25,508 bases of DNA from an uncultured Fibrobacterota bacterium (GCA_964455935.1 CAYVZU010000052.1:1-25508), one strand, 5' to 3'; counted from the first letter of the stretch, positions 1,837-19,345 are shown. Notes: generated by a model from the sequence alone, not told the origin. Numbers and translations are program-made.

Positions 1837-1888
1837 AGAATTTTCCTGCTAAAGCCGTTTGCTCGCCTTGGCCAAGGTTACGGCGGGT

Positions 1889-2312: not shown

Positions 2313-2334
2313 CCTCCGTGGTGAGTAATTATGG

Positions 2335-2613
2335 CTATTTCTTAATGCCCAGCATTGCGAAAACATCGTCATGGGCCGAAGGAATTACATTGGCGCACAC
2401 AAGCTCGCTAACCCGGGCTGCGGCTTCGGCGCCGGCTTCCACGGATGACTTAACCGCCCCAACCTCGCCCCGGACAATGGCCGTGACATAACCGGCGCCA
2501 ATGCCGACCTTGGATACAAAATCAACCTGCGCGGCCTTGATCATGGCATCAATGGCCAGTACATTTCCTGCATTTCCTTTTGTCTCAATGAACCCAAGCG
2601 CGACTTTCGCCAT
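2335..2613 (-). CDS. BMC-H hexameric shell protein
   Basis: 92 aa, MAKVALGFIETKGNAGNVLAIDAMIKAAQVDFV...; BMC domain. An AAAGGAGG RBS precedes the ATG at 2613. Confidence 0.85.
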   Translation of the reverse strand: MAKVALGFIETKGNAGNVLAIDAMIKAAQVDFVSKVGIGAGYVTAIVRGEVGAVKSSVEAGAEAAARVSELVCANVIPSAHDDVFAMLGIKK

Positions 2614-2632
2614 GCTTGCCTCCTTTTGGTTT

Positions 2633-2926
2633 TCAGTTCTCGTATAAAATCGTGATATTCTTCTTGCGAATCAGGTCCCTGGCGCGCGGAGTCAGGATGG
2701 TTCCTTGCGGGACCAGAATTTCTCGCGTAAGTTCGTGCAGCGTAAGCATATCCCGCTCGGTGATCAGGGGCGTTTTGTACTTGCTCATATCAATTCGCGC
2801 GACTCCCGTAAGCGGCTGAGCCGCCGATGCCGACCCGGCTTCGATGATTGGCGCCCCCGGGTTCCCAAGCTGGCGCAGAACCTCCCGCGTTACCATTTCC
2901 ACAATCCGCTCGATATTGACATCCAT
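2633..2926 (-). CDS. Small BMC-associated protein with an N-terminal encapsulation-peptide-like helix and a C-terminal region resembling the EutQ N-terminal segment
   Basis: The ORF is 2633..2992. I start it at the ATG at 2926 (MDVNIERIVEMVTREVLRQLGN...), which gives a TGA-A-ATG junction with the upstream BMC-P gene. The N-terminal 18 aa form an amphipathic helix like known encapsulation peptides. The C-terminal LITERDMLTLHELTREILVPQGTILTPRARDLIRKKNITI recalls, from memory, the EutQ N-terminus (LITANDIRA..GE..L.V...IITPEARELAELLGFTI). The other possible start is upstream at 2992. Confidence 0.55.
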   Translation of the reverse strand: MDVNIERIVEMVTREVLRQLGNPGAPIIEAGSASAAQPLTGVARIDMSKYKTPLITERDMLTLHELTREILVPQGTILTPRARDLIRKKNITILYEN

Positions 2927-2927
2927 T

Positions 2928-3218
2928 TCAGTCCCGCGAGTAAAGATCCTTGCCGGCTCTGGAAATACGTTCCACAATTGCGACAATAGCATTATCCGTA
3001 CACGTGCCCTTGGTCCGCGCAGTCAGCCGCGCGGAAGAAGAACCACATGTGAGCACGAGGTCGCCGTTTCTTGCCGACACGGCATCGACGGCCACGATTG
3101 TCCTCTTCGTCTCATTTAGTTGATCGTCGAGTTGCCGAATCACCAAAAGCCGGCACGATTCGAGATTGCCCTCTTTTCTATCCGCGACAACCTGTCCGAT
3201 TACAATTCCAAAAAACAT
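2928..3218 (-). CDS. BMC vertex (pentameric, BMC-P) shell protein of the EutN/PduN/CcmL family
   Basis: From the ATG at 3218 the protein reads MFFGIVIGQVVADRKEGNLESCRLLVIRQLDDQLNETKRTIVAVDAVSARNGDLVLTCGSSSARL...AIVAIVERI, which matches the BMC-P consensus. The start sits 1 nt after the PduL stop (TAA-C-ATG). Confidence 0.8.
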   Translation of the reverse strand: MFFGIVIGQVVADRKEGNLESCRLLVIRQLDDQLNETKRTIVAVDAVSARNGDLVLTCGSSSARLTARTKGTCTDNAIVAIVERISRAGKDLYSRD

Positions 3219-3219
3219 G

Positions 3220-3960
3220 TTAGGCCTTTCCCATAAAAACCGCCTGCTGATTGCAGGCCACATGCGCGGCATTGGCATCATCGGTATCCAAATGGAGCTG
3301 AAGCTTCCACGTATCATTGGTGCGCACAAGGGTTTGCTCGAAAACAGTGCTTTTAATTCCAGGGAGTTTCACGCTGATGTAATCACCCTGCTTTACGCCA
3401 AATGCGGCCGCATCCGCCGAGGTCATATGAACATGCCGGTTCGCGATAATCGCGCCTTCCTTCAGCACCAGGGTTCCCTTGGGACCCACAAGCGTGATTG
3501 GAGCGGCACCGCTCAGGTTGCCCGAATCGCGCACAGGCGGACGAAGGCCAAGCGCCACGGCGTCGGTGAACGAAATCTCGACCTGGTCGTATTTGCGGAA
3601 CGGGCCCAGAATGCGGACATTCTCGATTGTGCGCATCTTGGGTCCCGCAATGAGACAGGTCTGGATGGCGGCGAATTCGCCGGGCTGATAAAGGTCGCGA
3701 TATTTCTCCATTTTCGCGTCCGCGCCGAAGAGCAAGTGAAAGGACTCCTGCCGCAGATGAATATGACGATTCGAGACGCCCAACGGTATCGATCGGGCAT
3801 CTGGTGCCGCGGTGATATCCGGTCCCTGCAGGGCGCGAACGACTTCCTTCACAACCGCATCAATCAGATCAGACCCGCCTGCAGGCGTAGTCCCGGCAGT
3901 GCGAACCTGGCACGCGCCGCATTCCTGGCAAAACTGCGAGCAGCCTTGGGAAAAAATCAT
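3220..3960 (-). CDS. pduL: Phosphate propanoyl/acetyl-transferase (PduL family phosphotransacylase) with an N-terminal extension that includes an encapsulation peptide
   Basis: Both PduL repeats are present: LGVSNRHIHL and IIANRHVHM, with the second repeat region continuing IIANRHVHMTSADAAAFGVKQGDYISVK. The N-terminus reads MIFSQGCSQFCQECGACQVRTAGTTPAGG, followed by SDLIDAVVKEVVRALQG (encapsulation-peptide-like) and then the catalytic domain. The ATG at 3958-3960 has no spaced RBS but lies 10 nt downstream of a near-consensus -10 element. Confidence 0.85.
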   Translation of the reverse strand: MIFSQGCSQFCQECGACQVRTAGTTPAGGSDLIDAVVKEVVRALQGPDITAAPDARSIPLGVSNRHIHLRQESFHLLFGADAKMEKYRDLYQPGEFAAIQTCLIAGPKMRTIENVRILGPFRKYDQVEISFTDAVALGLRPPVRDSGNLSGAAPITLVGPKGTLVLKEGAIIANRHVHMTSADAAAFGVKQGDYISVKLPGIKSTVFEQTLVRTNDTWKLQLHLDTDDANAAHVACNQQAVFMGKA

Positions 3961-3970
3961 CCTGCCAGCA

Positions 3971-3999
3971 AGTATATCATATTATGTCATTTATGTCAA
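3971..3999 (-). promoter_or_regulatory. Sigma70-type promoter of the BMC operon, predicting a near-leaderless pduL mRNA
   Basis: The minus strand reads TTGACA (3999-3994), a 17-nt spacer, TATACT (3976-3971), then tgctggcagg, then ATG at 3960. A transcription start about 7 nt after the -10 element would fall 2-4 nt before the ATG. The surrounding 3961-4060 is AT-rich. Confidence 0.45.
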
Positions 4000-4101
4000 C
4001 AGATATCAGATTGCGTGATTGAAAAATGCGCCTTATGAAAAATTGCCGGGTATTGCGAAGCACCGGGCGGCCAAAATGTCCTATATCATAGGTTCGGCCA
4101 A

Positions 4102-4130
4102 AAAGCGCCGGTAAAAACCGGTATAGCGCA
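4102..4130 (-). terminator. Weak intrinsic terminator candidate downstream of the secreted-protein gene
   Basis: The minus strand reads gcgctataCCGGTttttACCGGcgcTTTTTgg: a 5-bp GC stem plus a 3-bp outer stem followed by T5. The stem is imperfect. Confidence 0.3.
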
Positions 4131-4268
4131 TCGGCTGAAGCGTTGACCGGGGACCTGCAGGCGGGCCAACGAGCTCCGAAATCAATTTTCCCGGCGCCGA
4201 CCTTGTCCTCCGAGGGGGAAGGCAAAATAGCAGACCGCGCTAAATGTCGCAGGTCCAAGTGCCCCTGG

Positions 4269-6071
4269 TTATTGGCCGTCTGGTGCAAACAGCAGGTATT
4301 TTCCGTTCGACGTAACTGTAAGGAAAATGCCGGAACCGATTCGGTATCGGTGAACTTTGTTGTTTGCATCCCCGAGTTTGGGCAAATACCGGCCCTGTAT
4401 ATCATAAATTACAGCATCGCTCATCTGTGGTACCTCGGATCCTAATACGGATTTCCAGGCTGGGCCAACTATCTTGCTGGAAGCAGACACCACTACATTG
4501 CCCGCATGTGTTCGGTTGACGGTCACAGCATAATCGCCATTGCCCAGATTACGAGTCGTATAGCCTTCGGCATTCAAATCGGTACGCAGCGAAATTGCCG
4601 TGCCACCAACCGTTACTGTTGAGGGCAAGAAAGCAAGGCGCAGAATTTCTATCCCATTGCTGTCCGATGGGGTATAATTGACCTGTGTCGCTGAATAGGT
4701 GACGCTTTTAATTACGCTCTTTGAATAAAGAATGTGATTTTCACGAGGCGGGGCCCATTCGGGAAATGCCGAAAAAATATAATAGAACATTGATGTGGCC
4801 TCGCCGTAGCAGTCGCTGAACCACCAACCCACCTCATCGGAATTGCCGTCCTTTGCCATACCGTGGTCGTCAACCATATAGGTCCAGTAGTTCGCTGCTC
4901 GACGCGCTATGTCTTTATGGGTCGCATTGCCCGACCATTTATACCATAACGCATATTCGGCTGCGAGGCGAGCGGTCTGATATCCCATCTGCAGTTTGTA
5001 GCAAACTTGCTCCGCAGGCACATGTGCACCGTATTGGATGAACGGATCGGGACACGTACAAGACATGTTGTCTTCTGTCCATTGAAGGAGCCGAGGTATG
5101 TTGGTTGAGAAATTGGGGTCGACCGATGGATTGTCAAGCAGATACAAACAGGCATTACTCTTGGTGGTATTGCTGAGGTTTCCGGTGCCTTTGATGTAAT
5201 TGTCACCATGGGCGTCAACCCACTTCCCGTTGGCCATGGGGTATTGCAGAAGCCACGCTTTGAGATTTGTGCGCGCCGTCCGGTACCCGGAGACATTGCC
5301 CACGTTGGCGGCAATCAATTCATCAAAGAGCTCCATGGCCTGAAAAAAGTTGGATGTGTATTCGGAGATCACCGTCCCGTTGGAGGAATTGACTACATAT
5401 GGCCAAGGCGAAACGCTTGCAGTGCCGGTGCCCATTTTGCTTACAAGAGTGTTTGCCACATTGACTGCGGCGTCGCGGAAATTGGTGTTGCCGTTATATA
5501 GGTAGATTTTGAAATATGCATAGGCCATGTCCGCAGCCTGGTCGACGTGCACCTCATTGTTGGGCCATGTCCCATTATTGCCTGAGGGCGTGCTGAAGCC
5601 ATTGAAGACCGTCTCGCCCGCATCGGCGGTGGTCACGGGCATATTGGGCCAGTTGGCGGTTGATGATGTGGTCGATGTGGATCGCGCATATTCGGCGAAA
5701 GCGATGATGTTGTTCAGCGCGGCTGATTTCCCGGTATACGCGTAATATGCGAGTGCCGACCGGACCAGGACCGGCACTTTCTCTCCTACATCATTGGTCC
5801 AACGATCGGGCGAATTCATGTTGTTGTCTCTGAATCCACAATAGAAGTAGTACATCTGTTTTCCGTTGTAGCTCGCGGGCTGCCGAAGCCAACACGACCA
5901 GCAACTGTCGAGCATTCTGTCGTACGCAAATTCTTCGGGGATGGTTCGAGGAAGCAATTTGCTTTGAGCATCGAGACGAACGCTGCCATAGCCCAGGTTC
6001 TGCGAAAAGCCGGTGGCACACAACGCTACCACACACAATAAAGCATTGGGAAAATATCGCTTAAGCACCAT
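4269..6071 (-). CDS. Secreted 600-aa protein with a signal peptide and a T9SS-type C-terminal sorting domain; catalytic family unknown, possibly a glycoside hydrolase or lyase
   Basis: N-terminus MVLKRYFPNALLCVVALCATGFSQ looks like a Sec signal. The body is rich in W/Y/N as in carbohydrate-active enzymes. The C-terminus ...VIYDIQGRYLPKLGDANNKVHRYRIGSGIFLTVTSNGKYLLF resembles the por_secre_tail/T9SS C-terminal domain. An AGGAG RBS sits 7 nt upstream of the ATG at 6071. Confidence 0.7.
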   Translation of the reverse strand: MVLKRYFPNALLCVVALCATGFSQNLGYGSVRLDAQSKLLPRTIPEEFAYDRMLDSCWSCWLRQPASYNGKQMYYFYCGFRDNNMNSPDRWTNDVGEKVPVLVRSALAYYAYTGKSAALNNIIAFAEYARSTSTTSSTANWPNMPVTTADAGETVFNGFSTPSGNNGTWPNNEVHVDQAADMAYAYFKIYLYNGNTNFRDAAVNVANTLVSKMGTGTASVSPWPYVVNSSNGTVISEYTSNFFQAMELFDELIAANVGNVSGYRTARTNLKAWLLQYPMANGKWVDAHGDNYIKGTGNLSNTTKSNACLYLLDNPSVDPNFSTNIPRLLQWTEDNMSCTCPDPFIQYGAHVPAEQVCYKLQMGYQTARLAAEYALWYKWSGNATHKDIARRAANYWTYMVDDHGMAKDGNSDEVGWWFSDCYGEATSMFYYIFSAFPEWAPPRENHILYSKSVIKSVTYSATQVNYTPSDSNGIEILRLAFLPSTVTVGGTAISLRTDLNAEGYTTRNLGNGDYAVTVNRTHAGNVVVSASSKIVGPAWKSVLGSEVPQMSDAVIYDIQGRYLPKLGDANNKVHRYRIGSGIFLTVTSNGKYLLFAPDGQ

Positions 6072-6317
6072 AGAAGACTCCTGAGGTTAAGGTAAAACGG
6101 CCGCTAATTCTTGCCCTGCAAAGACACCAACATAGCAAAGGCATACATCCGTGCTATAGCCTCGCTACCTCAAACAATTTGTTTCTACAAAAGGTGGCCT
6201 CATACTTTAGCAGGTATTAAGGTGATCAATTGGGCAGATGAAGTCAACAATTTTTTTAATATCCACAGGGCCCCCAGTTCAATTTAGAAGTGCAACATCA
6301 GGAGGTATCTTGATGAT

Positions 6318-6480
6318 GGCTTTTGGTCTTCCACGCATGCACGAGAAACTGGGAAAGGCGTTGCTCCTGACACCTTTCAGTTTCCGGTTCTGATGCCGAA
6401 TCCGCAACGACAACGTGTCGGTGTGTTTTGAAGCTGGAAGGCAAGAAGGGCAAACTGTCCGGGGGACAGTGGGAAATGCC
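6318..6480. repeat. Direct repeat copy 1 (~165 bp), noncoding, with an internal 11-bp stem
   Basis: About 90% identical to 7779-7945 in the same orientation. It contains ctttcagtttc ... gaagctggaag, with the same stem as in copy 2. Confidence 0.7.
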
Positions 6481-6481
6481 A

Positions 6482-7594
6482 TCACGAGTAAATACATTCG
6501 GATGCGGCCTCGGCAAACGCTTTGAGGTTGGCCGGATCGCCGAAGAAGAAATGGTCCGAGGGGCACAGGATGTATCCCGCATGATCTTTGGTTGACTCAA
6601 AGCAATCAAAAACCAGCTGCCGGGTTTTCTCCGGTGTGCCTTTTTCGAATCCCGCGTTCTGGTCGAATCCGCCGATAAAGAAGAGTTTATCGCCAACCCG
6701 GCGCGAGGCCTCGGCCAAATCGCAGTCGCCCCCCATGCTGGTCGGGGTCATGGTTTCCAAACCATCGGTCCCGGTTTCCACAGCCATGTCGAGCAAGGCC
6801 ATGAGACCGCCGCAAAGATGGTAAACTGTTTTAATGCCGATCTCGTGAAACAGCTCCACCTGGCGCTTGTCATACGGAAGGCAAAACTCGCGAAACATAT
6901 CCGGACTGATTACCGTGCTCGATCCGGCGCCGCCCCCCAGTTCGACCACGTCCGCCGGCGTTCCCTTCCAGAGTTTTGTAACCTCAAGGGTGCGCTTGAG
7001 GATCTCCTCAAGAGCGTGATGCAAAAAATCGGGCTGATCCATGGCCATATAAATGGCTTTTTCCGTATCGACCAGAGTGCAGAAGCTCTGCCATGGACTG
7101 CCCTGTCCCGGGCTGAACGGGTGTGAGCGAATGATCCCTTTTTCTCCCAGCCGCTCCTTCACCAGCTGAACCGGGCTTAAGTCGACGGATACGGGAATTG
7201 GGCGGTACTGGTTCCAAATCCCGAAGTCGGCTTCGTTTTTAATCGGGTATTCGGTCGTCCACTCGGTAAAGGCATTGCGCGCGCCTTTCTGGTGAAGGTT
7301 GCCCTTGGGAGTCGTAATCCGTTCTTCCCAGCGCTCGTTGCCATCTTCGTCTTTGCCGAGTTCCTTGTGCTGGACCTTCCATTGGCCGGGATCGGTATTG
7401 TAGATGTATTCCGGAGATACGTAGATCGCGTAATCCATGCCGAACCGCTCATAGGCGGCCCACCAGTCGCAGCCGCCCAGGTACGTCTTCAGATAATAGT
7501 TCATCCAGCCATGGACCTGGCAGGGCAGCCGGTCGGGCCGGTCGTTGGAAAGAGCTGTCAGCATTCGCTGGCGTGAGGTCATCCGATGTGGCAT
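6482..7594 (-). CDS. Uroporphyrinogen decarboxylase (URO-D) family protein, HemE/MtaA-like
   Basis: 370 aa with a URO-D fold along its whole length (MPHRMTSRQRMLTALSNDRPDRLPC... then a C-terminal TIM-barrel region with GGFDQNAGFEKGTPE). An AGGAG RBS lies 6 nt upstream of the ATG at 7592-7594. Confidence 0.85.
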   Translation of the reverse strand: MPHRMTSRQRMLTALSNDRPDRLPCQVHGWMNYYLKTYLGGCDWWAAYERFGMDYAIYVSPEYIYNTDPGQWKVQHKELGKDEDGNERWEERITTPKGNLHQKGARNAFTEWTTEYPIKNEADFGIWNQYRPIPVSVDLSPVQLVKERLGEKGIIRSHPFSPGQGSPWQSFCTLVDTEKAIYMAMDQPDFLHHALEEILKRTLEVTKLWKGTPADVVELGGGAGSSTVISPDMFREFCLPYDKRQVELFHEIGIKTVYHLCGGLMALLDMAVETGTDGLETMTPTSMGGDCDLAEASRRVGDKLFFIGGFDQNAGFEKGTPEKTRQLVFDCFESTKDHAGYILCPSDHFFFGDPANLKAFAEAASECIYS

Positions 7595-7650
7595 TTCGCA
7601 CTCCTGCGCAGTGTAACGTAAGGTTCTCGATGCAAAGATACGAGATCATC

Positions 7651-7664
7651 TCGGACACCCGCAA
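7651..7664. promoter_or_regulatory. Perfect 14-bp palindrome CCCGCAATTGCGGG in the 5' region of the URO-D gene; candidate operator
   Basis: Read directly from the sequence, about 57-70 nt upstream of the URO-D start codon. Confidence 0.25.
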
Positions 7665-7778
7665 TTGCGGGCGGGTGGTGCAGGCTTTGATCGGAACCTT
7701 TGGAATTCCAAGGCAATTCACGATTCAATCCAGGACATAGAAGGCAATCCCGTGCGGAAAGGACTTTATTAAGAAGCC

Positions 7779-7945
7779 TTCGGAGTGGCTTGGTTCTCCG
7801 CGCACGCACGGGAAACTGGGAAAGGCGTTGCTCCTGACACCTTTCAGCTTCCGGTGCTGATGCCGAATCCGCAACGGCAACGTGTCGGTGTGTTTTGAAG
7901 CTGAAAAGCAAGAAAGGCACAATGTCCGGGGGACAGTGTCACACG
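7779..7945. repeat. Direct repeat copy 2 (~165 bp), noncoding
   Basis: Aligns with 6318-6480. It has a perfect 11-bp stem ctttcagcttc (7842-7852) / gaagctgaaag (7897-7907). Confidence 0.7.
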
Positions 7946-8210: not shown

Positions 8211-9830
8211 TTATTCGGCTTCGGGCTTGTGGGCAATCGCGAAAAACCCCTCTACATCCTTGCCGCAATCCTTGGTGGCAAGGCTCACAAGAATCAGCAC
8301 CAAAAACGAGCAGGTTACCCCAAAAACGCCAGGTCCGCCGGCTGTGGGCAGGCCCAAGAAAGACTTGATGCCTACAAGCAGCATGAAGATAAAGGCTACG
8401 GATACAGCGAGCCCTGTGATCATTCCCGCCATGGCTCCCTGTCGGGTGAGGCGCTTCCACCACAGACTTGATAGCATAACAGGGAAGATGGCCGATGCCG
8501 CGATGCCGAAGGCCAGTGTGACCAGCCAGGCCACATTCTCCTTTTTGACGGCCACCGCGATGGCCACCGAAACCACGCTCATGACAAGTGTGGTTATTTT
8601 TGCAATCGAGAGCTCCTGTTTTTCCGTTGCGTTTTTATTGATGTAAACCTTGTAGAGATCGTGCGAAATTGTAGAGGCTGCGGTAATCATGAGCCCGGCT
8701 GCGGTGGAAAGCACGGCGGCAACCGCGCCGGCGGCAGCCAATGCCATCAGGACCTGACCCCCCAGAACACCGGCCGCTTCAAGTACGCTCATGTTCTTGG
8801 CGATCCCAAACTTGCCCGCGGCTATCCATCCAACCAGCTTGGGATAAATACCCGGCATGGTCAGAAACCCGAGAAAGATGGTGCACAAGTAAAATATCCC
8901 CAAGGCTATAATGCAAAGCATAACGCTCTTTTTGGCGGCCCTGGCCGACGGCACGGTGTAGAACATAATGAGGATATGCGGGAGACCCGCCGTGCCAAAC
9001 ACAAGAGCGATGACCGTGGAAATTTGCGCAAGAAGACTTGGGGTTTGAATTCCAATGGTCATCGCGCTGGGCGCATCCGGCATCAATGTCCGTGCCGCGG
9101 TAATGGCTTCTTTGGCGCTGCCCGCGGCGGCCACCGCGGCGGTCGCCGCTGGATTTTTGCCCGCGATTTCGGGAGGAACAATCTGCTGAGCGACCTCGAT
9201 CATTTTCTGGAAAGAACCTTCGCCAAACACCAGGAAGGCCAGCACGGTGACAAAGACCATTGCAAAAAATAGAAAAACGGCCTGAATCAATTGGTTGTAA
9301 ATCGTTGCCTTCATGCCGCCAAACACGATATAGATGCTGATGAGGATTCCCAATAGAATGGTGACGAGCACAAAATTCCATCCCATCACGAGCTCGAACA
9401 ATAGCCCTGCGCCCAGCATCTGCGGCACGAGGTAAAAGGTGGAGATGACCAATGTGCAAATCATCACAACAAGCTTGATCCGATCGTCGGGGAACCGGCG
9501 GTGGAGCGCATCGGCCACGGTATAGCTTCCCACATTGCGCAACGGGCCGGCAATGAGCAGGAGCACCGCCATGTAGCCGCCAAAGAAACCGATGGAAAGC
9601 CAGATTCTATCCACCCCAAAGATGGATATATCGCCAGCGCACCCCAGGAACGAGGCGGCCGAAAGATAGCTGCCCACCATTGCAATCCCGGTTTGAACCC
9701 ACGGGATTGACCGCCCGGCAACATAGAAATCCGAAGCGCTTTTGGCTTGCTTCTGCGTGATCCATGTGATCGCGATTGAGACCGCGACAAAGAACAGGAT
9801 AAAGACGAATACCAAAGGATAGTTCAACAT
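8211..9830 (-). CDS. Sodium:solute symporter (SSS) family permease, large subunit
   Basis: 539 aa with multiple transmembrane helices and the SSS signature GRSIPWVQTGIAMVGSYLSAASFLG. A TGAGG RBS precedes the ATG at 9830. The gene is 7 nt downstream of a DUF4212 gene. Confidence 0.85.
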   Translation of the reverse strand: MLNYPLVFVFILFFVAVSIAITWITQKQAKSASDFYVAGRSIPWVQTGIAMVGSYLSAASFLGCAGDISIFGVDRIWLSIGFFGGYMAVLLLIAGPLRNVGSYTVADALHRRFPDDRIKLVVMICTLVISTFYLVPQMLGAGLLFELVMGWNFVLVTILLGILISIYIVFGGMKATIYNQLIQAVFLFFAMVFVTVLAFLVFGEGSFQKMIEVAQQIVPPEIAGKNPAATAAVAAAGSAKEAITAARTLMPDAPSAMTIGIQTPSLLAQISTVIALVFGTAGLPHILIMFYTVPSARAAKKSVMLCIIALGIFYLCTIFLGFLTMPGIYPKLVGWIAAGKFGIAKNMSVLEAAGVLGGQVLMALAAAGAVAAVLSTAAGLMITAASTISHDLYKVYINKNATEKQELSIAKITTLVMSVVSVAIAVAVKKENVAWLVTLAFGIAASAIFPVMLSSLWWKRLTRQGAMAGMITGLAVSVAFIFMLLVGIKSFLGLPTAGGPGVFGVTCSFLVLILVSLATKDCGKDVEGFFAIAHKPEAE

Positions 9831-9837
9831 GCTTGCC

Positions 9838-10095
9838 TCATTTCCAAAGGACGAAGAAAATTGCGATTAGGACCCACGACACAGGAAAAACGGCCAAAGA
9901 GAGGAATAGCCCCAGGGGCATCCCCGCAAAAGGGATCGCCGCCACCATATGAAATGTGGGCGTTTGGATAATTGCGGTACCCATATAGAAAGCAAAAAAC
10001 ACAATAAATATGCTGAACCCCAGAACCAGGCGACTGCGGTAATTGTTGGTCCATCCCGCTGCCTCGGGCTGGCTGATTTTGGTACTCTCTTCCAT
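9838..10095 (-). CDS. DUF4212-type small membrane subunit associated with SSS transporters
   Basis: 85 aa with two transmembrane helices (MEESTKISQPEAAGWTNNYRSRLVLGFSIFIVFFAFYMG...). A GGAGG RBS lies 3-4 nt before the ATG. It is immediately upstream of an SSS permease. Confidence 0.7.
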   Translation of the reverse strand: MEESTKISQPEAAGWTNNYRSRLVLGFSIFIVFFAFYMGTAIIQTPTFHMVAAIPFAGMPLGLFLSLAVFPVSWVLIAIFFVLWK

Positions 10096-10244
10096 TCGAC
10101 CTCCAGTTGAGTATGCCTCCGAATGCAGTTTTGAGCCTGTAAAATATAAATCAATAAGTGAAGAAAAGAACCTGTATTGATGCTTGCGCGAAATACGGCC
10201 GGGTTGGGAAACCAGCCAGCACGGAACCTATTTCCGAAATCGCC

Positions 10245-13136
10245 TCATTCTCCCAGGAAAACACGGCGCATCTGATTTTGAATCGCATCGATCTGCGCAA
10301 AGCATTCCTTTAAAACGGCCTGTTCGATGCGGCTGAGCCAGCCCGGGTCTAGTAGGTTGTCCGGCTGCCCGCCGCGTTCGACAGAAGCCGATTGATGGCG
10401 GATCCGCAGCCGAAGCAGCGATTCGTGGGTGACCGAGAGATCCTGGTACTCGGACGAAAGCAGAATGCCTTTGCGTGTAAGGGCCTCAAGACGGGACAGG
10501 GTGTTGGTTTCCGAAATTTCATGCTGCATGGAATAGATCCGCGCGTATGAAACAATCGGCAAGGCCGCAGCCTTCAGATCCAGACGGGCGGCATGCTCGC
10601 CCGATCCGGCGGCCAGAACGTGTCCGAACAGGCGCAGAGGGGCCTTGAAGCCCAGCGCATTGCGCACGGCATGAGGAAAGAACGCGGGATTCACCTCCAG
10701 CAAACGGGCGATATGGGCGTGCAATTCCACTGCCAGAGTGGTTTCGCCGGCCACCGGACGGAAATCAAAAAAGATGCTGAACTCCATCAGCTCTTTTGGC
10801 TCCGCTCTTCTGATCCAGGTTTCGAAATATTCCTTCCAGGTACCAAGGGGCTTGCACCAACGGGGATTGCTGGCCAGCGACCTGCCCCGGCACTCGAGGT
10901 AACCCGCTTCGCTCAGCCCCGAGCAGACGAATCCGGCCAGGGCCTGGAAATAGGTGCCCGCGCCGGTCTCGGAATCCGTCTGGTCCGCGTTGTAGATAAT
11001 TGCGTTGTCCTGGTCCGACGTCAGCGTCTGCTCACGGCGTCCCTGGCTGCCCAGAGCGAGAAAAACAAAGGGCGCCGGCGGTTTTCCCAGCGTTTCGATT
11101 CCCAATTCAAGCAGGCGTCTGGTTGCGGCGTCGGTCACATCGGCCAGCAGGCGCGCGATGTCCGGCGCATACGCGCCGTGATCGAGAAGTGACTTCACCA
11201 GCTTTGGATTTCTTCGGCAAATGGAAATGACCTGATCCCGGCTTGGGGCGCGCGCAATTTCCTGCGCCAGGTCCTGCACCGTCACCGCCGGAAGCTGAAG
11301 CAGCCGTTCCAGGACGCTGTGCTTGCGCGCCTCGGCCAATTCGGCGTTGTCCTGAATCTCGCTTGGGCGAAGAAGGACCATCAGTCCGCCCGGCACCGCT
11401 TCGGAGATCCGCCGGAAGGTGAAGGCACATTCCGCCAGATTTCCGTCTCTTTGCCGCGCCACGCCGCGGGCCGATTGGTCGGCCGGATTGCCCGCGTCCA
11501 ATCGCCGCAGAGCTGCCGTTGCGCTTTCGTTTTCCGGGCTGGAAGGAACCACATCCTCCAGGTCGAGCAGTTCCAGCTCCTTTTGCGAGTAGCCCAGCCA
11601 GCTCAGCAGGACGGGGTTGGCATACCGGCAGCGGCGGTCGCTCACGAACAAAGCGCCCTCGCCCGCGGCTTCCACCAGCATGCGGTAGCGATCCACGGCC
11701 TCCCTCAGCAATTCCTCCGCCGTGTTCCTGTTGCGTTCCGCGCGGTAGCTGGCGCGAACCGAAACCATCAGCAGCATCGCCACCAGGGCCGCGATGGCCG
11801 CCGAGACCCCCGCCAATCTGTTTCGGAGATGATCCAACTCCGCCTTCACATCGTTCATGTAAATTCCGGTGCCAATGATCCAGTTCCAGGGCTCAAACAG
11901 CCGAAGATAGGATTCCTTCGGTTCCAGGCGGTGCGGGTCGTCTTTCCATTGCCAGACGTAGTCGACGTATCCCTCGCCATTGGCCTTGACCACCTCCACG
12001 AAAACCGTGAATATGCGAACACCGCGCGGATCGGTAAAACTCGAAAGGTCGGCACCGTTGAGATCTCTGCGATAGGGGTGCATGATCATGCGCGGCGCGA
12101 GGTCCTGAAGCCAGAAATAGTCCTTGGCCTCCGGCCCGTAGCGCATCGCCTCCACACGCACCTTCGCCTGCTCCTGAGCCTGCAGCCGCGTCAGCAATCC
12201 CTTCTGTTCTTCCCGGTTGGCCTCATCCAGAATGCTCCAGGCCGCGTTGGTCAGTTCCCGAATCATCTCGCGTTTGCGCTCCAGCAACGCCTTTTCAAAC
12301 CGCGGCAGGAAAACAAGAAAGAGGACGCCGGCAAATAGCGCCAGCGTCATCAGGGACGGAAGGACGATGTGCGCCATGAATCCGCGCCAATGAAATCCGG
12401 GGCCCGCTGTTGCAATCGGCAGGGGCGGCCGGAACCTCGCTTTGGCGGGCGCTTCGGTCCGCGCGGCGCGGCTCAGGCAGGCATCGCGGAAAGCCTTCCA
12501 TGCCGTTAGAGGCATTTGTACGCCGGGTTTTCGATCCGGCACATTGTTGGAGAAATGAACATCCGATCCGGCCGAAACAATCAGGCCAAATTGCGCGGCC
12601 AATGCGCAAGCGCGCTCTTTGTCCCGGGCGGAAGCCGTGTTGTTCAGCGCTTCGATACCGTCAAGTCCCGATTGCCGTAATTCCTTTACGATATTCGCCA
12701 GATTGTCGGGGTTCGGCACCGAAGCAAAGGGGTGGGCCAAAACCGCGATCCCCCCGGCCTTGTGGATCAGTGCAATGGCTTCAGTGGCGGGCAAAGACCG
12801 CTTGGGGATCAGAATGGGCGAATCCGCATCCCGGCGCGCGGCAAGCTCCCGAAGCGCCGCGCGCAACTCTCCCTGCTCCGTCTCGATCCCGTATCCCAGG
12901 ATGTGCAATTCCAGGCCGGCCAATTGCGTCGTCATCTCCACACCGGCGATGGAACCGATGCCCTGACGCGACAGGACTTGCCTGAAAACGGACTGGCCTT
13001 CAAGCGAATCGTGATCGGTCAGGGAGGCATATTGAACACCGGCCTCGGCCAGCTTTGCCGCAAGCCGGTCCGGCGGCAGGGCGCCATCACTGAACGATGA
13101 ATGGCAGTGGAAATCGACGACGACCGTCTCGCCCAT
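10245..13136 (-). CDS. Multidomain membrane signalling protein: N-terminal PHP phosphoesterase, TM, periplasmic single Cache domain, TM, PAS, then DUF294 nucleotidyltransferase with DUF294_C (GlnD/GlnE-like)
   Basis: 963 aa. PHP motifs VVVDFHCHSSFSDG...LTDHDSLEG...LAHPF...SAGSDVHF. A transmembrane helix HIVLPSLMTLALFAGVLFLVFL. A Cache signature KESYLRLFEPWNWIIGTGIYMNDV, followed by a second transmembrane helix. A PAS-like segment. Then the nucleotidyltransferase core FVFLALGSQGRREQTLTSDQDNAIIY and a C-terminal substrate-binding-like helical domain. Confidence 0.85.
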   Translation of the reverse strand: MGETVVVDFHCHSSFSDGALPPDRLAAKLAEAGVQYASLTDHDSLEGQSVFRQVLSRQGIGSIAGVEMTTQLAGLELHILGYGIETEQGELRAALRELAARRDADSPILIPKRSLPATEAIALIHKAGGIAVLAHPFASVPNPDNLANIVKELRQSGLDGIEALNNTASARDKERACALAAQFGLIVSAGSDVHFSNNVPDRKPGVQMPLTAWKAFRDACLSRAARTEAPAKARFRPPLPIATAGPGFHWRGFMAHIVLPSLMTLALFAGVLFLVFLPRFEKALLERKREMIRELTNAAWSILDEANREEQKGLLTRLQAQEQAKVRVEAMRYGPEAKDYFWLQDLAPRMIMHPYRRDLNGADLSSFTDPRGVRIFTVFVEVVKANGEGYVDYVWQWKDDPHRLEPKESYLRLFEPWNWIIGTGIYMNDVKAELDHLRNRLAGVSAAIAALVAMLLMVSVRASYRAERNRNTAEELLREAVDRYRMLVEAAGEGALFVSDRRCRYANPVLLSWLGYSQKELELLDLEDVVPSSPENESATAALRRLDAGNPADQSARGVARQRDGNLAECAFTFRRISEAVPGGLMVLLRPSEIQDNAELAEARKHSVLERLLQLPAVTVQDLAQEIARAPSRDQVISICRRNPKLVKSLLDHGAYAPDIARLLADVTDAATRRLLELGIETLGKPPAPFVFLALGSQGRREQTLTSDQDNAIIYNADQTDSETGAGTYFQALAGFVCSGLSEAGYLECRGRSLASNPRWCKPLGTWKEYFETWIRRAEPKELMEFSIFFDFRPVAGETTLAVELHAHIARLLEVNPAFFPHAVRNALGFKAPLRLFGHVLAAGSGEHAARLDLKAAALPIVSYARIYSMQHEISETNTLSRLEALTRKGILLSSEYQDLSVTHESLLRLRIRHQSASVERGGQPDNLLDPGWLSRIEQAVLKECFAQIDAIQNQMRRVFLGE

Positions 13137-13286
13137 TTTTTGCGCCTCGCTCCATGCCGGCCAAGCCGGAAAGAATCGGACCGGATAACAGAATAATAAA
13201 ATAAGAATAAACGCAGTTGCTTTCGATTACAGGAGAAACAGCGAACCGGGAAACGACGTTGCGGAAGAAAAAAAAGAGATCGGGAA

Positions 13287-13316
13287 TTTCCCGGCGCACT
13301 GGAGTGCGCCGGGAAA
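13287..13316. other. 13-bp perfect inverted repeat (stem-loop) between the upstream SSS operon and the PHP-nucleotidyltransferase gene
   Basis: tttcccggcgcac tgga gtgcgccgggaaa. On the minus strand a T8 run lies about 14 nt after the stem, so it is not a canonical terminator. Confidence 0.3.
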
Positions 13317-13376
13317 ACCAATTTCGCTAGTGTTCTCCAGGGGTCCTGGAAATTCCGGGAACGATCGAGCCGCCCC

Positions 13377-15257
13377 TCAGGGATTGGCGACCTGTTTCCT
13401 TCCGGTGAACAGGGAAACCACGACCAATGTCATGAAGCTCAGCGGAATTGAAATAATGCCTGGCTGTCCCAGCGGATGCCACGCCTGGGCCTCGGTCAGG
13501 CCGTAAGGGCCTTTGAACATATCGGGCCCGGTCAAAATAATGGCAAGTGCCGATACGGTTCCGACAATGATCGAGGCAACAATTCCGGCCGCCGTGGTTC
13601 GCTTCCAGAACAGCAGCATCAGGATTGCCGGGAGATTGGCCGAGGCCGCCACGGCAAAGGCCCAGCCCACCAGGAAGCTGACGTTCACCCCGCGAAAGAG
13701 AATGCCAAAGACGATGGCGACAAGGCCCACCGCAAAAGCGGCGATTTTGCCGGCCCGCACTTTTTGTGTGTCGCTTAGTCCCATCCGCCCGAACCTGTCC
13801 AGCAGGTCATGGGCCACAGCGCCGGAAGCCGCGACAATCAGCCCCGCGACGGTGCCCAGCACTGTTGCAAAGGCGATCGCCGAAATGATAGCAAAGAGCA
13901 CATGGCCAAAGGAAAATGCCAGAAGCGGCGCCGACATGTTGTTGTCGGCCGGATTAATGGTGCCGTTGATTGCCGCGCCCATTCCCATAAACAGCGTTAA
14001 AACATAGAAAAATCCAATGGCGGCAATGGCCACGATGGTCGATTTTCGGGCGCAGGCCGGACTTGGAACCGTATAGTAACGGATGAGAATGTGCGGCAAG
14101 GCCGCGGTACCAAAGAAAAGGGCCATCATCAGGGACACGAAATTCAGTTTTTGCCAGAGCGTTTTGACCTTGAAATAAACTCCGGGGTTCATGACATCGG
14201 TACCCGTCACGGATTTGGGGAAAAATACCTTGATCTTGCCGCCGTCGGTGTCCAGAATGCTTTTGGTGGACCATTGCTCGTACCGGGTCTGCGGATCAGT
14301 GAGAATTTTAAGAAAAGCAAGGGGTCCAACCGGGCCGGTGCCTTTGCGGGCGGTCTCGCTGCCAATACCGCCGATAGTCTCCAGCCGTCCGACCGGCAAC
14401 AGGTGCCCATCTTTGCGGCCATTGACGAGTCCCTGGCCCTGCCACTGCGTTTGCAAAAGCAAGTCGGCTTCCTTTTTCCACCATGAAATCTGGCCATCTC
14501 GTTCAAACTTGGCAAACCCGTCGGTCTCATGGCTAAAAGCATAGCCCTGGGATTCCAGCTCGGCTTGCGTGCTTTTCGTGGAGACAAACGAGGTTCTGAT
14601 TGATGGATCGGCGGAGTCAGGCAGGCCGGCCGGGCTGGTCGACAGCCCGCGCAGTAAAAGAAAGATCACCAGGATCGTGGAAAAGGCCAGCAACAGCCCG
14701 CCTTTGATAAACTGCACGTAGGTGGTCGAGGTCATGCCCGCGGTGGCCACGATGGTGATTACAATCGCGCCCACCAGAATGACGCCCACCCAATGGGGAA
14801 GCCCAAGCAGCGGTTCGACCAGGGTCCCGGCGCCCACCATCTGCGGAATCAGATAGCAAATCGATACGACCAGTGTCGCTATGGCGGCGGCCAGCTTGAT
14901 CCCGCGGTGATTGTACTTGGCGTCCAGCGCATCGGTGAACGTGTATTTGCCCAATCGCTTCATGGGTTCGGCCACGACAAACAGCGCAACGATCCATCCG
15001 GCGAGATAACCGATGGAATACAGAAACCCGTCATAGCCCAGCGTGGCGATCATGCCGCAGATGCCCAGGAACGAAGCGGCGGAGAGGTAGTCCCCCGCGA
15101 AGCTGATTCCGTTGACGGCCCAATGGATCTGGCCGCCCGCGGCATAATAGCCGCTGGCCGAGCGCGCGCGTTTGGCGAAATACCAGCTAAGAGCGAGTAC
15201 CACAACAACGAAGAAACTGAAAATTGCAATGCTGGAAAAGGTTGCGCCCTGGTACAT
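13377..15257 (-). CDS. Sodium:solute symporter (SSS) family permease, paralogue with a ~170-aa inserted soluble domain
   Basis: Start taken at the ATG at 15255-15257 (MYQGATFSSIAIFSFFVVV...), which overlaps the DUF4212 stop as TAATG. The signature GDYLSAASFLGICG is present. An extra non-membrane segment, roughly residues 205-375, is inserted between transmembrane blocks. Confidence 0.85.
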   Translation of the reverse strand: MYQGATFSSIAIFSFFVVVVLALSWYFAKRARSASGYYAAGGQIHWAVNGISFAGDYLSAASFLGICGMIATLGYDGFLYSIGYLAGWIVALFVVAEPMKRLGKYTFTDALDAKYNHRGIKLAAAIATLVVSICYLIPQMVGAGTLVEPLLGLPHWVGVILVGAIVITIVATAGMTSTTYVQFIKGGLLLAFSTILVIFLLLRGLSTSPAGLPDSADPSIRTSFVSTKSTQAELESQGYAFSHETDGFAKFERDGQISWWKKEADLLLQTQWQGQGLVNGRKDGHLLPVGRLETIGGIGSETARKGTGPVGPLAFLKILTDPQTRYEQWSTKSILDTDGGKIKVFFPKSVTGTDVMNPGVYFKVKTLWQKLNFVSLMMALFFGTAALPHILIRYYTVPSPACARKSTIVAIAAIGFFYVLTLFMGMGAAINGTINPADNNMSAPLLAFSFGHVLFAIISAIAFATVLGTVAGLIVAASGAVAHDLLDRFGRMGLSDTQKVRAGKIAAFAVGLVAIVFGILFRGVNVSFLVGWAFAVAASANLPAILMLLFWKRTTAAGIVASIIVGTVSALAIILTGPDMFKGPYGLTEAQAWHPLGQPGIISIPLSFMTLVVVSLFTGRKQVANP

Positions 15258-15571
15258 TATGCCACCCCGTTGGCTTTTTTGGTTTTGGAGCATCCGGGTT
15301 GCGGATTGTTCGCCCGTTCCCTGGCCGTGCAGACGGCGTTATAAACCAGCGCAAGAATGAAAGCGACCAGGATAAGGCCAAAGCCGTAGACCACGGCCAC
15401 ATTGAGGCCGCCGGGTAGAATTCTCTGCAAGGCCCTGCCCTCGGTGAGAACGTTCAAAAGTACAAAGCCTGCGTAAATTGCCGTGTAGACCACAAAGAGA
15501 ATGGCGCCCAAACGGGTTTTAAACCCAATGGTATTATCCGGTCCCGAAGCTTTTGCTGGTTCGTGAAGCAT
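15257..15571 (-). CDS. DUF4212-type small membrane subunit associated with SSS transporters
   Basis: 104 aa with two transmembrane helices (..ILFVVYTAIYAGFVLLNVL...LNVAVVYGFGLILVAFILALVYN). An AAGGA RBS precedes it. The stop codon overlaps the permease start. Confidence 0.7.
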   Translation of the reverse strand: MLHEPAKASGPDNTIGFKTRLGAILFVVYTAIYAGFVLLNVLTEGRALQRILPGGLNVAVVYGFGLILVAFILALVYNAVCTARERANNPQPGCSKTKKANGVA

Positions 15572-15868
15572 TTCACTTATCCTTTGTGAAAATGTTTTCC
15601 GTATGCAAACCTATCCGCAAAAATAAAAGAAGCTGGAATGGGCTACAATATAGATTTTCCAAGAAGTCGCATACAGAATTTTATAATCCGATTTAGAGGA
15701 ATGAGGGATAAGGTTCGGCAGACTCACGCAGGGCAAAATTCGAAATTCCGGGCAGCATGCATTATATTGGATGCAGCCGGTCCACGCCCAATTGACGGGT
15801 AAATTCCACCTTCTTCGCCCCTGGGTAGAATTGCAGAATCACGGTTGGAGAGAGGACCCGTTGAGCCA

Positions 15869-16765
15869 ATGAAATTCGAAAGCGTGCTTGGTTGTCTTCT
15901 TCTTTCCCTGCCCTTGCTGCTTTCCGCCGGCCCTAAGCCCGAAAGGGCTGATTTCGTTCGCTTCCTCGACTCTCTTGAGCCCCAAGCGACTCAGCAGGGG
16001 ATCGCCGCGGAGTGGTATGGGAAGATCAGGAACCAGATCGAATTCCGTCCGGAGGTGATCATCATCGACCGATTGCAGGGCGAGAGGCCTCCGCATTCCT
16101 ATTCCGAACATATGGAGCGCTGGCTTGCGGTTTGCGGATATCCGAAGGAAACCCGGATCACCCTCGGTAAAAAATTGCTTGCCAAGCACCGGGCCGTTCT
16201 GGACCAGGTAGAGCTGAAATACAAGGTGGATCGAACCGTGATTGTGGCCTTGTGGGGCGTGGAAACACAATATGGCAATTACATGGGTAAGCATCGCATT
16301 CTGGATGTCTTGGCGACTCTCGCTTTCGAAGGCCGTCGCCGCCAGTTTTTCACAGCGGAATTTTTAAACGCTCTGCAAATTTTGCAGGAGGGGCATGCTT
16401 CGCATGATAAATTTATCGGATCCTGGGCGGGAGCAATGGGTCAGTGCCAGTTCATGCCCACTAGCTTTTACAATTACGCCGTGGATTTCGACAAAGACGG
16501 CAAGAGGGATATTTGGAGCAATCATGCCGATATTTTCGCCTCAATCGGCAACTATCTAAAGACGGCCGGGTGGCAGTGGAAAAAATCCGTTGCCAGTTCC
16601 CAACCCAATACAACCGGGGCCTCCAAAGAGATCAGATTATTGAACGATGGCTCGCCCATACTCTATGCGAATATCAACTACCAGACAATTCGGCGCTGGA
16701 ACGCATCCGACGAGTTTGTGTTCAAGGTTAACTTCCTAAAGAGCCATTTCGACCGCAACCAGTGA
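15869..16765 (+). CDS. mltB: Lytic murein transglycosylase B-like (MltB/GH103-type) with a signal peptide
   Basis: From the ATG at 15869 the protein begins MKFESVLGCLLLSLPLLLSAG. MltB motifs ALWGVETQYG and QFMPTSF are present. A GGAGAGAGGA RBS lies 12 nt upstream. The ORF track starts this ORF at a TTG at 15845. Confidence 0.8.
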   Translation: MKFESVLGCLLLSLPLLLSAGPKPERADFVRFLDSLEPQATQQGIAAEWYGKIRNQIEFRPEVIIIDRLQGERPPHSYSEHMERWLAVCGYPKETRITLGKKLLAKHRAVLDQVELKYKVDRTVIVALWGVETQYGNYMGKHRILDVLATLAFEGRRRQFFTAEFLNALQILQEGHASHDKFIGSWAGAMGQCQFMPTSFYNYAVDFDKDGKRDIWSNHADIFASIGNYLKTAGWQWKKSVASSQPNTTGASKEIRLLNDGSPILYANINYQTIRRWNASDEFVFKVNFLKSHFDRNQ

Positions 16766-18243: not shown

Positions 18244-19345
18244 TGAATACCGCGTCTATCGCGTCTAGGGACGGACCTTTAAAACTATATTTACGAATGG
18301 CTTCTTCTTTGCGAGTTCATCGCCGGCGGCGATGCTCAGGGTCGCAGGGGAGCCGCCGACACCCAGATATTCTCCAATCTTGTTTACGGGGAACCCGTAC
18401 TCCCGGCGGCAAAGGTGGGCAAACACATGCCGCAATGCTGCCAAATGCGAGCCTCGGCTGCGCCGCTGCAGTTGTTCTTTGGTGATCCCGGAGACTTTGC
18501 AGAAGTTACCGGCAAGCGAATCAAGCAAAACGCCTTCAACTCTGTACCGGGCAAGCCTGATCCGGTTGGTTTTATCCGCGGCCAGGGCGGCCTTCACAAA
18601 TTCGGGATCTCCGATCACCCAGCATCCCGGATCGAACATATCTTTCCTGCCGGCATTTGCCATTCGTATCGTCTTTATCAGGGTATCTTCGGCCATGCCC
18701 ACCCCTGATGCGATGAACTCCCAGTAATTGAAAGTCGCCGTCTTCCGGTCCCTGCCAAACCTGCGCAAAACAATCCAAGAATCCATAAAATCGCAGTTGC
18801 GGTTGCTCATAATCACCGCGTGACTGCTCCAGGGGTATGCATCCAGGACCTCAAGGCTATCGCAGATTCCGGCGCGCAAGGGGTTAAGGTGAACGTAGCG
18901 TATGATTTCCTTTACGTAATATTGATCCTGTGTTGTAATTGACTTAAACCGGTCCTGAAACAGGTATCCGCGCCGACCATGTTTTCGCGCATGATATAGG
19001 GCATAGCGGGTATTAAGTGGCCGCATCAGATCGCAAAGGGGACGCTCGGCTGTCTGGATCAGCAAATGGTAATGATTGGACATTAAGGTCCAGGCATGAC
19101 ATGCGCAGCCGCTCTTTTTCAGGTTTTCGCGGAGGAACTCAAGGAATTTTGTGCGGTCTTCTTCATCAACGAAAACATCGCGGCCTTCGATGCCCCTGGC
19201 CATTACATGATAGAAACTCCCAGGTAGAAATATGCGCGCTTTTCGAGGCATGCTCCAAGATAATTCATGTTTCGCCAAATTATAAATAAAGTTATAAAGG
19301 TCCGTCCCTAAGCGGCGGCGCTAAGCGGCGCGTAAACCATCGTCG
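18244..19345. mobile_element. Compact IS-like element: one HUH (Y1) transposase gene bounded by ~32-bp imperfect terminal inverted repeats
   Basis: The right inverted repeat attataaataaagttataaaggtccgtcccta (19279-19310) matches the reverse complement of the left inverted repeat 18266-18297, with a 15/15 core and 27/32 overall. Outside each repeat are short tandem GC-rich subrepeats (gacgcg ata gacgcg / agcggcg..agcggcg). A possible 7-bp flanking direct repeat TTTAACC occurs at 18237-18243 and 19346-19352. Confidence 0.6.
18265..19251 (-). CDS. IS200/RAYT-like HUH (Y1) transposase fused to a C-terminal DnaA_C-like helix-turn-helix domain
   Basis: SFYHVMARG at the N-terminus, the HUH motif NHYHLLI, and a catalytic-Tyr region RYVHLNPLRAG. 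The C-terminal ~90 aa (..ITKEQLQRRSRGSHLAALRHVFAHLCRREYGFPVNKIGEYLG..) resemble the DnaA C-terminal DNA-binding domain. The last 8 codons lie inside the left inverted repeat. The ATG at 19251 is preferred; an alternative TTG start is at 19278. Confidence 0.8.
   Translation of the reverse strand: MPRKARIFLPGSFYHVMARGIEGRDVFVDEEDRTKFLEFLRENLKKSGCACHAWTLMSNHYHLLIQTAERPLCDLMRPLNTRYALYHARKHGRRGYLFQDRFKSITTQDQYYVKEIIRYVHLNPLRAGICDSLEVLDAYPWSSHAVIMSNRNCDFMDSWIVLRRFGRDRKTATFNYWEFIASGVGMAEDTLIKTIRMANAGRKDMFDPGCWVIGDPEFVKAALAADKTNRIRLARYRVEGVLLDSLAGNFCKVSGITKEQLQRRSRGSHLAALRHVFAHLCRREYGFPVNKIGEYLGVGGSPATLSIAAGDELAKKKPFVNIVLKVRP

Follow-up and report, generated by a model that had tools for sequence, protein, structure and literature searches.

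A candidate short-chain monocarboxylate uptake-and-sensing module in an uncultured Fibrobacterota bacterium: a Cache-PAS-DUF294 sensor enzyme between two ActP-group symporters

We analysed a stretch of 25,508 nucleotides (nt) from an uncultured Fibrobacterota bacterium (GCA_964455935.1, CAYVZU010000052.1:1-25508; hereafter the window), in which five co-directional genes on the minus strand encode, in this order, a small membrane protein (small1), a sodium:solute symporter (SSS) permease (perm1), a multidomain sensor enzyme (sensor), a second small membrane protein (small2) and a second SSS permease (perm2). We propose that these genes form a short-chain monocarboxylate uptake-and-sensing module, in which a sensor of external C2/C3 acids would drive a reversible nucleotidylylation, probably of the transporter, and we give this proposal an even chance of being correct. 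An earlier annotation made from the sequence alone (the sequence-only reading) had placed the genes at the same coordinates and had described them as a conserved module of two DUF4212-SSS pairs flanking the sensor. This observation was partly confirmed, as it was largely correct apart from the labelling of the small subunits and the extent of the conservation, and the interpretation attached to it was partly supported.

The description of the sensor as a PHP-Cache-PAS-DUF294 protein was borne out by Pfam, and the two transporter pairs indeed bracket it on the same strand (Table 1). Because two transmembrane (TM) helices bracket the sCache_2 domain, this domain is predicted to lie outside the cell, with PHP, PAS and DUF294 inside. 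The Cache domain matched the structures of Adeh_3718 (4K08) and PscD (5G4Y/5G4Z) with E-values of about 1e-31. Brewster et al. reported that propionate is contacted in PscD by Y90, W92, H103, F126, Y143, W145 and K156, and that the same seven residues are identical in acetate-bound Adeh_3718 and in McpP (PMC5062169). When mapped by alignment, these contacts correspond to Y340, W342, H353, F376, Y393, W395 and K407 of the sensor, so that all seven are shared with PscD of Pseudomonas syringae, McpP of P. putida and Adeh_3718, and they were invariant in 22 sensor homologues. Judged by this pocket, the sensor Cache would be of the C2/C3-carboxylate-binding type, with ligands of the acetate/propionate class as the prediction. 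PscD Met129 is replaced by Phe379 in the sensor, and the size preference of the pocket may be shifted. On the model of the monocarboxylate sensor MctS, the Cache region scored 72 bits. Whereas PscD, McpP and Adeh_3718 are chemoreceptors with methyl-accepting chemotaxis protein outputs, the output of the sensor in the window is an enzyme domain.

In this output part, the residues of the G-S...D-x-D motif and a downstream Asp (G696, S697, D708, D710 and D791) are invariant, and the presence of both Pfam domains together with this Pol-beta motif assigns it to the DUF294/DUF294_C core of COG2905. Neither a cyclic-nucleotide-binding (cNMP) nor a CBS domain was found in the sensor, which therefore does not have the classical COG2905 architecture. 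An AlphaFold2 (AF2) model of the output part (pLDDT 80.7, pTM 0.82) had protein adenylyltransferases (GlnE/DrrA) as the closest folds to its nucleotidyltransferase (NTase), at a sequence identity of just 10-12%, and poly(A), CCA or TUTase enzymes were not among the nearest folds. Adenylyltransferases of this type combine the NTase fold with a helical substrate-binding domain and transfer AMP to a tyrosine of a protein. GlnE and Legionella DrrA/SidM also have different partner domains: GlnE pairs two NTase-like halves, and the action of DrrA is reversed by SidD. At the N-terminus, all metal-ligand motifs of a PHP phosphoesterase (HxH, D, DH, E, H, H, DxH) are kept, and the ligands H10, H12, D17, H42, E67, H78, H135, D192 and H194 align to those of RNase AM (7UG9) and the pAp phosphatase Cv1693 (2YB1). 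The NCBIfam scores of the PHP domain (120 and 99 bits) were below the respective cut-offs of 400 and 375 bits.

The neighbourhood of the sensor gene was compared among species-representative genomes encoding the sensor. 87 loci were fetched and 80 were kept, all of them from metagenome-assembled genomes (MAGs) that span Chloroflexota, Armatimonadota, Verrucomicrobiota, Planctomycetota, Latescibacterota, Fibrobacterota, Cloacimonadota, Spirochaetales, Clostridia and other groups. The sensor architecture is common, with more than 1100 protein matches and a relative in more than 593 species-representative genomes, and the family occurs in two forms of ~960 amino acids (aa) and ~1230 aa, the longer one with extra PAS and CBS domains. 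The nearest relatives were found in MAGs of Krumholzibacteriota, Latescibacterota and Fibrobacterota.

An SSS permease adjoins the sensor in 61 of the 80 loci. A perm1-type permease (54-83% identical, insert included; see below) is adjacent in 51 of them, and in 46 of these 51 its gene is the immediate upstream neighbour in the same orientation, as a rule with a small1 homologue ahead of it and, in all but one case, with a gap of 9-250 nt to the sensor gene. In five loci (L009, L010, L016, L021 and L024), the sensor gene is followed immediately by small2 and a perm2-type permease (68-74% identical), and the other adjacent permeases, in four loci, are a canonical ActP (L008) and DUF4212-type permeases (L014, L015 and L022). 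Clustering of 703 neighbouring open reading frames (ORFs) recovered the SSS family in 61 loci and a DUF485-like ORF in at least 33, while the next cluster reached just 7 loci and no transcription factor recurred beside the sensor in the 80 loci. No ActP-group match was obtained in 19 loci, just six of which have at least 2.5 kb on both sides. Adjacency of an SSS gene in about three quarters of 80 scattered genomes would be far above the expectation for a family with few copies per genome. Since the pairing recurs across many uncultured bacteria, with an SSS permease and its small subunit as the only recurrent neighbours, the link between sensor and transporter is probably functional, as had been suggested from the sequence alone. 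What is conserved is the sensor with one pair: among the loci examined, both pairs surround one sensor in this window only. In the closest relative (L098), whose sensor is 76% identical, an 85-aa ORF and a 539-aa SSF gene follow the sensor as they do in the window, and the contig ends upstream.

Both permeases belong to the sodium:solute symporter family (PF00474), with scores far above the gathering cut-off (GA) of 22.8 bits (Table 1). Among the curated NCBIfam models, perm1 scored 443 bits on MctC (NF058657), 314.9 (TIGR02711) and 386 on ActP and 255.9 on VC_2705, and perm2 scored 286.6 (TIGR02711) and 349 on ActP, 343.5 on MctC and 298.1 on VC_2705, all of which are below the curated cut-offs (ActP TIGR02711, 1099 bits; MctC, 670 bits; VC_2705 large subunit TIGR03648, 320.75 bits). 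Scores on the PutP and PanF models were far lower for both. For a neighbour-joining tree, we combined both with ActP, PutP and PanF of E. coli, ActP of P. aeruginosa, two permeases that have a DUF4212 partner, and permeases of related loci. In this tree, both window permeases join the ActP proteins of the two species, far from PutP and PanF, in one ActP/VC_2705 group of four clades (long perm1, canonical ActP, perm2 and DUF4212-partnered), the long perm1 clade being the sister of canonical ActP. Identity to ActP is 40% for perm1 and 37% for perm2, compared with ~20% to PutP/PanF. By these comparisons, perm1 and perm2 are relatives of ActP/MctC and not orthologues. The proposed acetate/monocarboxylate assignment is thus supported by the best model scores and the tree; there was no clustering with transporters of unrelated substrates, and synteny with DUF294 is kept. 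The two pairs are paralogous in a loose sense only, both permeases being of the ActP group: perm1 and perm2 are 36% identical and fall in separate clades, and they are therefore distant paralogues that did not arise by a recent duplication.

A feature that sets perm1 apart from perm2 and from ActP is a domain of ~160 aa (residues ~204-366, window ~14160-14648) inserted between TM6 and TM7 and conserved across the perm1 clade. In the AF2 model of perm1 (pLDDT 81 overall) this insert is beta-rich, with a pLDDT of 86-92. It had no Pfam match at E-values up to 10 and no significant sequence match in the PDB (best E = 1.3). Positive-inside reasoning places the insert in the periplasm, where contact with either the Cache domain or the substrate is conceivable. 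A Foldseek search with the perm1 model returned transporters only (SGLT1/2, CHT1, SiaT, NIS and vSGLT at E-values of 1e-8 to 1e-12), in agreement with a LeuT-type fold. A groundwater metagenome contains perm1 in identical form, and the closest homologues (75-77% identical) are from Krumholzibacteriota. In an Armatimonadetes chromosome (OY970325.1; L005/L043, ~5950-7860), a perm1-type gene lies in fragments upstream of an intact sensor gene; its pieces are 83%, 78% and 56% identical to perm1, the gene caller gives 278 aa, and the fragmentation reflects either a pseudogene or an assembly error.

The identification of the small subunits as DUF4212 proteins did not hold for either ORF and is rejected on the basis of the Pfam scores. 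small1, with two hydrophobic helices and a position directly upstream of an ActP-like permease, is a DUF485 protein (PF04341, 32.5 bits against a GA of 28) without a match to DUF4212 (PF13937), and in ~50 loci a perm1-type permease gene comes directly after a tblastn match to small1 (35-51% identity). small2 was above the cut-off of no Pfam family (DUF485, 13.0 bits against a GA of 28; DUF4212, 9.3 bits against a GA of 30). Its five orthologues are 48-58% identical, each ends 5-8 nt before a perm2-type gene, and they share an invariant QTP...G.P.GL..SL..FPVSW motif. They scored 20-22 bits on DUF485, which is also below the GA, and comparison of the small2 family by hhalign (probability of 2% against the DUF485 alignment and 17% against the DUF4212 alignment) was uninformative with alignments this shallow. 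In its topology of two TM helices and in its position, small2 resembles DUF485. An overlapping ORF of 76 aa was considered as the true small2 gene and was rejected, as the 85-aa ORF is the one kept ahead of the perm2-type gene in the five orthologues. True DUF4212 ORFs were confirmed beside the same sensor family elsewhere, where they served as positive controls (L014, 112 bits; L022, 107 bits) and where the permeases are true members of the VC_2705 family, and DUF4212-SSS pairs also adjoin classical DUF294 genes.

To place the module among known systems, we searched annotated plasmids and chromids by tblastn with the DUF294 half of the sensor and inspected eight of the 63 records; those of P. 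aeruginosa, Paracoccus and a Krumholzibacteria variant were scanned with Pfam. In the three scanned records, the classical form consists of cNMP-binding, CBS, DUF294 and DUF294_C domains. A 3'-5' exonuclease gene was adjacent or within two genes in seven of the eight classical loci (RNase_T being confirmed by Pfam in three scanned cases), and a DUF485-ActP or DUF4212-SSS pair lay directly upstream of the DUF294 gene in five. The order is DUF485-ActP-DUF294-exonuclease in P. aeruginosa and Methylocella, and DUF4212-SSS-DUF294 in Paracoccus and Rhizobium, with the exonuclease gene one or two genes further on. Skermanella has the latter type without an annotated exonuclease, the place of which is taken by a hypothetical protein. 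A hypothetical protein of 165-195 aa directly follows DUF294 in alphaproteobacterial DUF4212-SSS-DUF294 clusters (L089, 7046-7543; L092, 7068-7652; L099, 6097-6621); those of L089 and L092 had no Pfam match, and this protein may be a further component of the system. A split variant, in MAGs of Krumholzibacteriia and Polyangiaceae, encodes an sCache_2-PAS-DUF294 protein of 686-687 aa without PHP, followed by a Metallophos phosphoesterase (L096, 4649-7457; L097, 4694-7500), in an operon divergent from DUF485 and a perm1-type permease. The phosphoesterase partner is thus drawn from three unrelated families, as a fused PHP domain, an RNase_T gene or a Metallophos gene. This interchange looks like a non-orthologous displacement, and hydrolytic activity would therefore be integral to the system.

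The P. aeruginosa cluster, which we take to be PA3235-PA3232, has the same order of small subunit, ActP-group permease, DUF294 plus DUF294_C enzyme and phosphoesterase as the window. The module described here differs from this type by a periplasmic sCache_2 domain and a PAS domain in place of cytoplasmic cNMP-binding and CBS domains, by a fused N-terminal PHP domain in place of a separate DEDD exonuclease (no RNase_T ORF was present among the window ORFs scanned), and by a second transporter pair after the sensor. In E. coli, the acs-yjcH-actP region for the acetate/glycolate:cation symporter likewise contains a DUF485 protein and a tight overlap of small ORF and permease gene, of 4 nt, whereas the K-12 region includes no DUF294 gene. 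The CrbS/MxtR-CrbR/ErdR and MctS/MctR systems are also dedicated sensors controlling genes for acetate or monocarboxylate uptake. However, these are transcriptional two-component systems, and a mechanism of this kind was rejected for the window, because Pfam revealed neither a kinase nor a receiver nor a DNA-binding domain in the sensor, and no such domain recurs next to it. That DUF294 genes are associated with ActP-group symporters has been described before. PA3232-PA3235 were induced together ~16-fold on propionate and were co-induced on acetate as well (PMC9765439), DUF485 and DUF4212 proteins were required for their permeases, and some DUF4212/SSS genes were cofit with a neighbouring COG2905 gene (Price et al., bioRxiv 10.1101/072470). 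In P. fluorescens, a gene with cAMP, CBS and NTase domains belongs to the CrbS/R acetate regulon (PMC5715377). New here is the combination of a Cache/PAS input, a fused PHP domain and two alternative transporter partners.

The mechanism that we propose starts from the observed anatomy, domains, synteny, conserved ligand pocket and catalytic motifs, and fold similarity; from these we infer the ligand, the enzymatic activity, the relation of writer and eraser and the identity of the target, the last being the weakest step. Two heteromeric cation/solute symporters, each composed of a two-TM small subunit and an ActP-group permease, would import acids of the acetate/propionate/pyruvate class and would probably differ in affinity or substrate. 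An external C2/C3 carboxylate would bind the periplasmic sCache_2 pocket, and the signal would pass via TM2 and PAS to the cytoplasmic GlnE/DrrA-type NTase, which would attach AMP or UMP to a protein. The N-terminal PHP metal-phosphoesterase would reverse this modification, as in GlnD, GlnE or DrrA-SidD, which are reversible switches. The most parsimonious target would be the adjacent transporter complex, either the permease or the small subunit, given that nothing else is conserved as a partner and that genes for transcription factors are absent from the vicinity. Uptake would then be tuned post-translationally to the acid concentration outside. The more specific claim that a GlnE/DrrA-like writer under an extracellular acetate/propionate sensor switches an ActP-class transporter, or the small subunit of one, with PHP as the eraser (or RNase T-like or Metallophos enzymes in sister systems), is tentative, and we would not bet on it.

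If this claim were true, it would provide a function for DUF294/COG2905, a widespread family whose genes are found in many bacteria next to those of symporters for acetate, pyruvate and lactate, and it would add three new families of de-nucleotidylases. With the transporter as the target, a new mode of control over short-chain fatty acid uptake would be at hand, and regulation by AMPylation or UMPylation would, to our knowledge, extend to a transporter for the first time. This would be relevant for anaerobic carbon cycling in groundwater and sediments, and for the use of acetate and propionate by pathogens such as P. aeruginosa. The present variant makes the DUF294 question testable, as it has a predicted input, a defined output fold and a phosphoesterase fused in the same protein.

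Several observations weigh against reversible nucleotidylylation of the transporter. A fold match to GlnE/DrrA does not prove that the substrates are proteins. The RNase T-like, RNase AM-like and Mre11-like families are known mainly for acting on nucleic acids, and with partners of this kind a product in the form of an oligonucleotide or RNA would be no less fitting than a protein-NMP bond. The PHP domain of the sensor lacks the ~60-aa insertion of TrpH-type enzymes such as RNase AM and Cv1693, and the sensor alignments are shallow, with 14-22 sequences. In three of the eight classical loci a DUF294-exonuclease pair has no transporter nearby, and the six well-flanked sensor loci have no ActP-group permease, though in one of them (L030) a distant SSF gene does adjoin the sensor; the target may therefore be something other than the transporter. 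The pflu5625 mutant of P. fluorescens had no phenotype (PMC5715377), and in the literature, searched for DUF294 and COG2905 as whole words, there was no functional study, with neither an activity nor a target demonstrated.

Protein nucleotidylylation has as its main rival the synthesis of another product, either a nucleotide signal or a 3' extension on RNA. In the first case, DUF294 would respond to acid binding by the Cache domain with the synthesis of a linear or cyclic oligonucleotide messenger, as OAS or CD-NTases do, the PHP, RNase T-like or Metallophos enzyme would degrade it, and the receiver would be the transporter or an unlinked protein. We regard this as possible, if on the unlikely side. 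It would account for a partner slot filled by three unrelated phosphoesterase families, as the RNase_T, RNase AM/pAp-phosphatase-like PHP and Metallophos families all have members with short oligonucleotides or nucleotide messengers as substrates, and the occurrence of the NTase-exonuclease pair away from transporters is what a diffusible signal would predict.

A different target that merely shares the substrate, such as acetyl-CoA synthetase or another enzyme of acetate metabolism, would reduce the adjacency to co-regulation. The acs gene does adjoin the cluster in Paracoccus and yjcH-actP in E. coli, and the DUF294 loci without a transporter and the six well-flanked sensor loci without an ActP-group permease point in the same direction. 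However, no family besides SSS and the small subunit was present in more than 7 of the 80 loci, and the gaps to the permease gene are operon-like in nearly every case, which makes us doubt this explanation strongly.

We also consider it improbable that control is exerted at the RNA level, with the NTase tailing and the nuclease trimming a transporter mRNA or a small RNA and thereby setting permease expression. The fold comparison speaks for protein adenylyltransferases over RNA-tailing enzymes, the sensor has no RNA-binding domain in Pfam, a scan of the whole window with Rfam gave zero matches, and a membrane-anchored RNA-tailing enzyme would be unusual. These points stand against the exoribonuclease families of the partner enzymes and the strong terminator-like hairpin between perm1 and the sensor gene, both of which this explanation would accommodate. 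Lastly, the suggestion that transporters and sensor serve the neighbouring bacterial microcompartment (BMC), moving its acyl products in or out, draws on a BMC locus that ends ~300 nt from perm2 on the same strand and is highly improbable, as this link is not conserved: none of the 87 loci has a homologue of PduL or of the shell proteins close to the sensor, tblastn of the aldehyde dehydrogenase (AldDH), PduL, shell, URO-D-like and 600-aa proteins against these loci gave weak isolated matches only, the sole AldDH-like one (L087, 29% identity) lying ~3 kb downstream of the sensor, and the closest relative has a cation-efflux gene after the perm2 position.

The TAATG overlap that had been read as translational coupling of one pair is present between small1 (stop codon at 15259-15257) and perm1 (ATG at 15257-15255). 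Because the small1 stop codon overlaps this in-frame ATG, the perm1 start is most likely at 15257, giving 626 aa, and the ATG of the longest ORF at 15293 is disfavoured. small2 and perm2 are separated by 7 nt (TGA ggcaagc ATG), and a spacer of 150 nt precedes small2. Between perm1 and the sensor gene lies a stable hairpin followed by a U-run (Table 1), which is likely an intrinsic terminator or attenuator and suggests that transcription of the upstream pair can be separate from that of the sensor gene. Part of this hairpin was also picked up by an automated scanner. A scan of the window for consensus promoters gave no excess over the shuffled expectation.

Table 1. Features of the module in the window. 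Residue numbers are those of the sensor enzyme; locations relative to the membrane are predictions.
Feature	Position in window (nt)	Residues	Strand	Family, score or basis
small1, two-TM small subunit, 104 aa	15257..15571		-	DUF485 (YjcH-like), Pfam PF04341, 32.5 bits
perm1, SSS permease, 626 aa	13377..15257		-	PF00474, 222.6 bits, in two stretches
Hairpin and U-run, perm1/sensor intergenic	13268..13325		-	Minimum free energy -31.4 kcal/mol, z = -5.7 against shuffles
sensor enzyme, 963 aa	10245..13136		-	PHP, sCache_2, PAS, DUF294 and DUF294_C (Pfam)
PHP phosphoesterase of sensor, cytoplasmic	~12492-13136	1-~215	-	
TM helix 1 of sensor		257-275	-	Hydropathy
sCache_2 of sensor, periplasmic	11829-12281	286-436	-	
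TM helix 2 of sensor		442-460	-	Hydropathy
PAS of sensor	11367-11690	483-~590	-	
DUF294 nucleotidyltransferase of sensor	10794-11210	643-781	-	Pfam, 147.5 bits
DUF294_C of sensor	10257-10685	818-960	-	Pfam, 119.7 bits
small2, two-TM small subunit, 85 aa	9838..10095		-	Distinct family, weakly DUF485-like
perm2, SSS permease, 539 aa	8211..9830		-	PF00474, 278.5 bits

The module is bordered by two ORFs without a family match, one of 151 aa just upstream of small1 (15839-16294) and one of 113 aa on the other side (7579-7920). The BMC locus (60-7920) contains genes for an acylating aldehyde dehydrogenase, PduL, three BMC-H proteins, a 600-aa protein (4269-6071) without a match in Pfam, NCBIfam or the PDB, and an MtaA/CmuA-like methyltransferase of the URO-D fold (6482-7594), an enzyme set that is unusual for a metabolosome. 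Further upstream of small1, an ORF of 337 aa (18265-19278) combines an IS200-like Y1 transposase domain with a helix-turn-helix resembling the C-terminal domain of DnaA.

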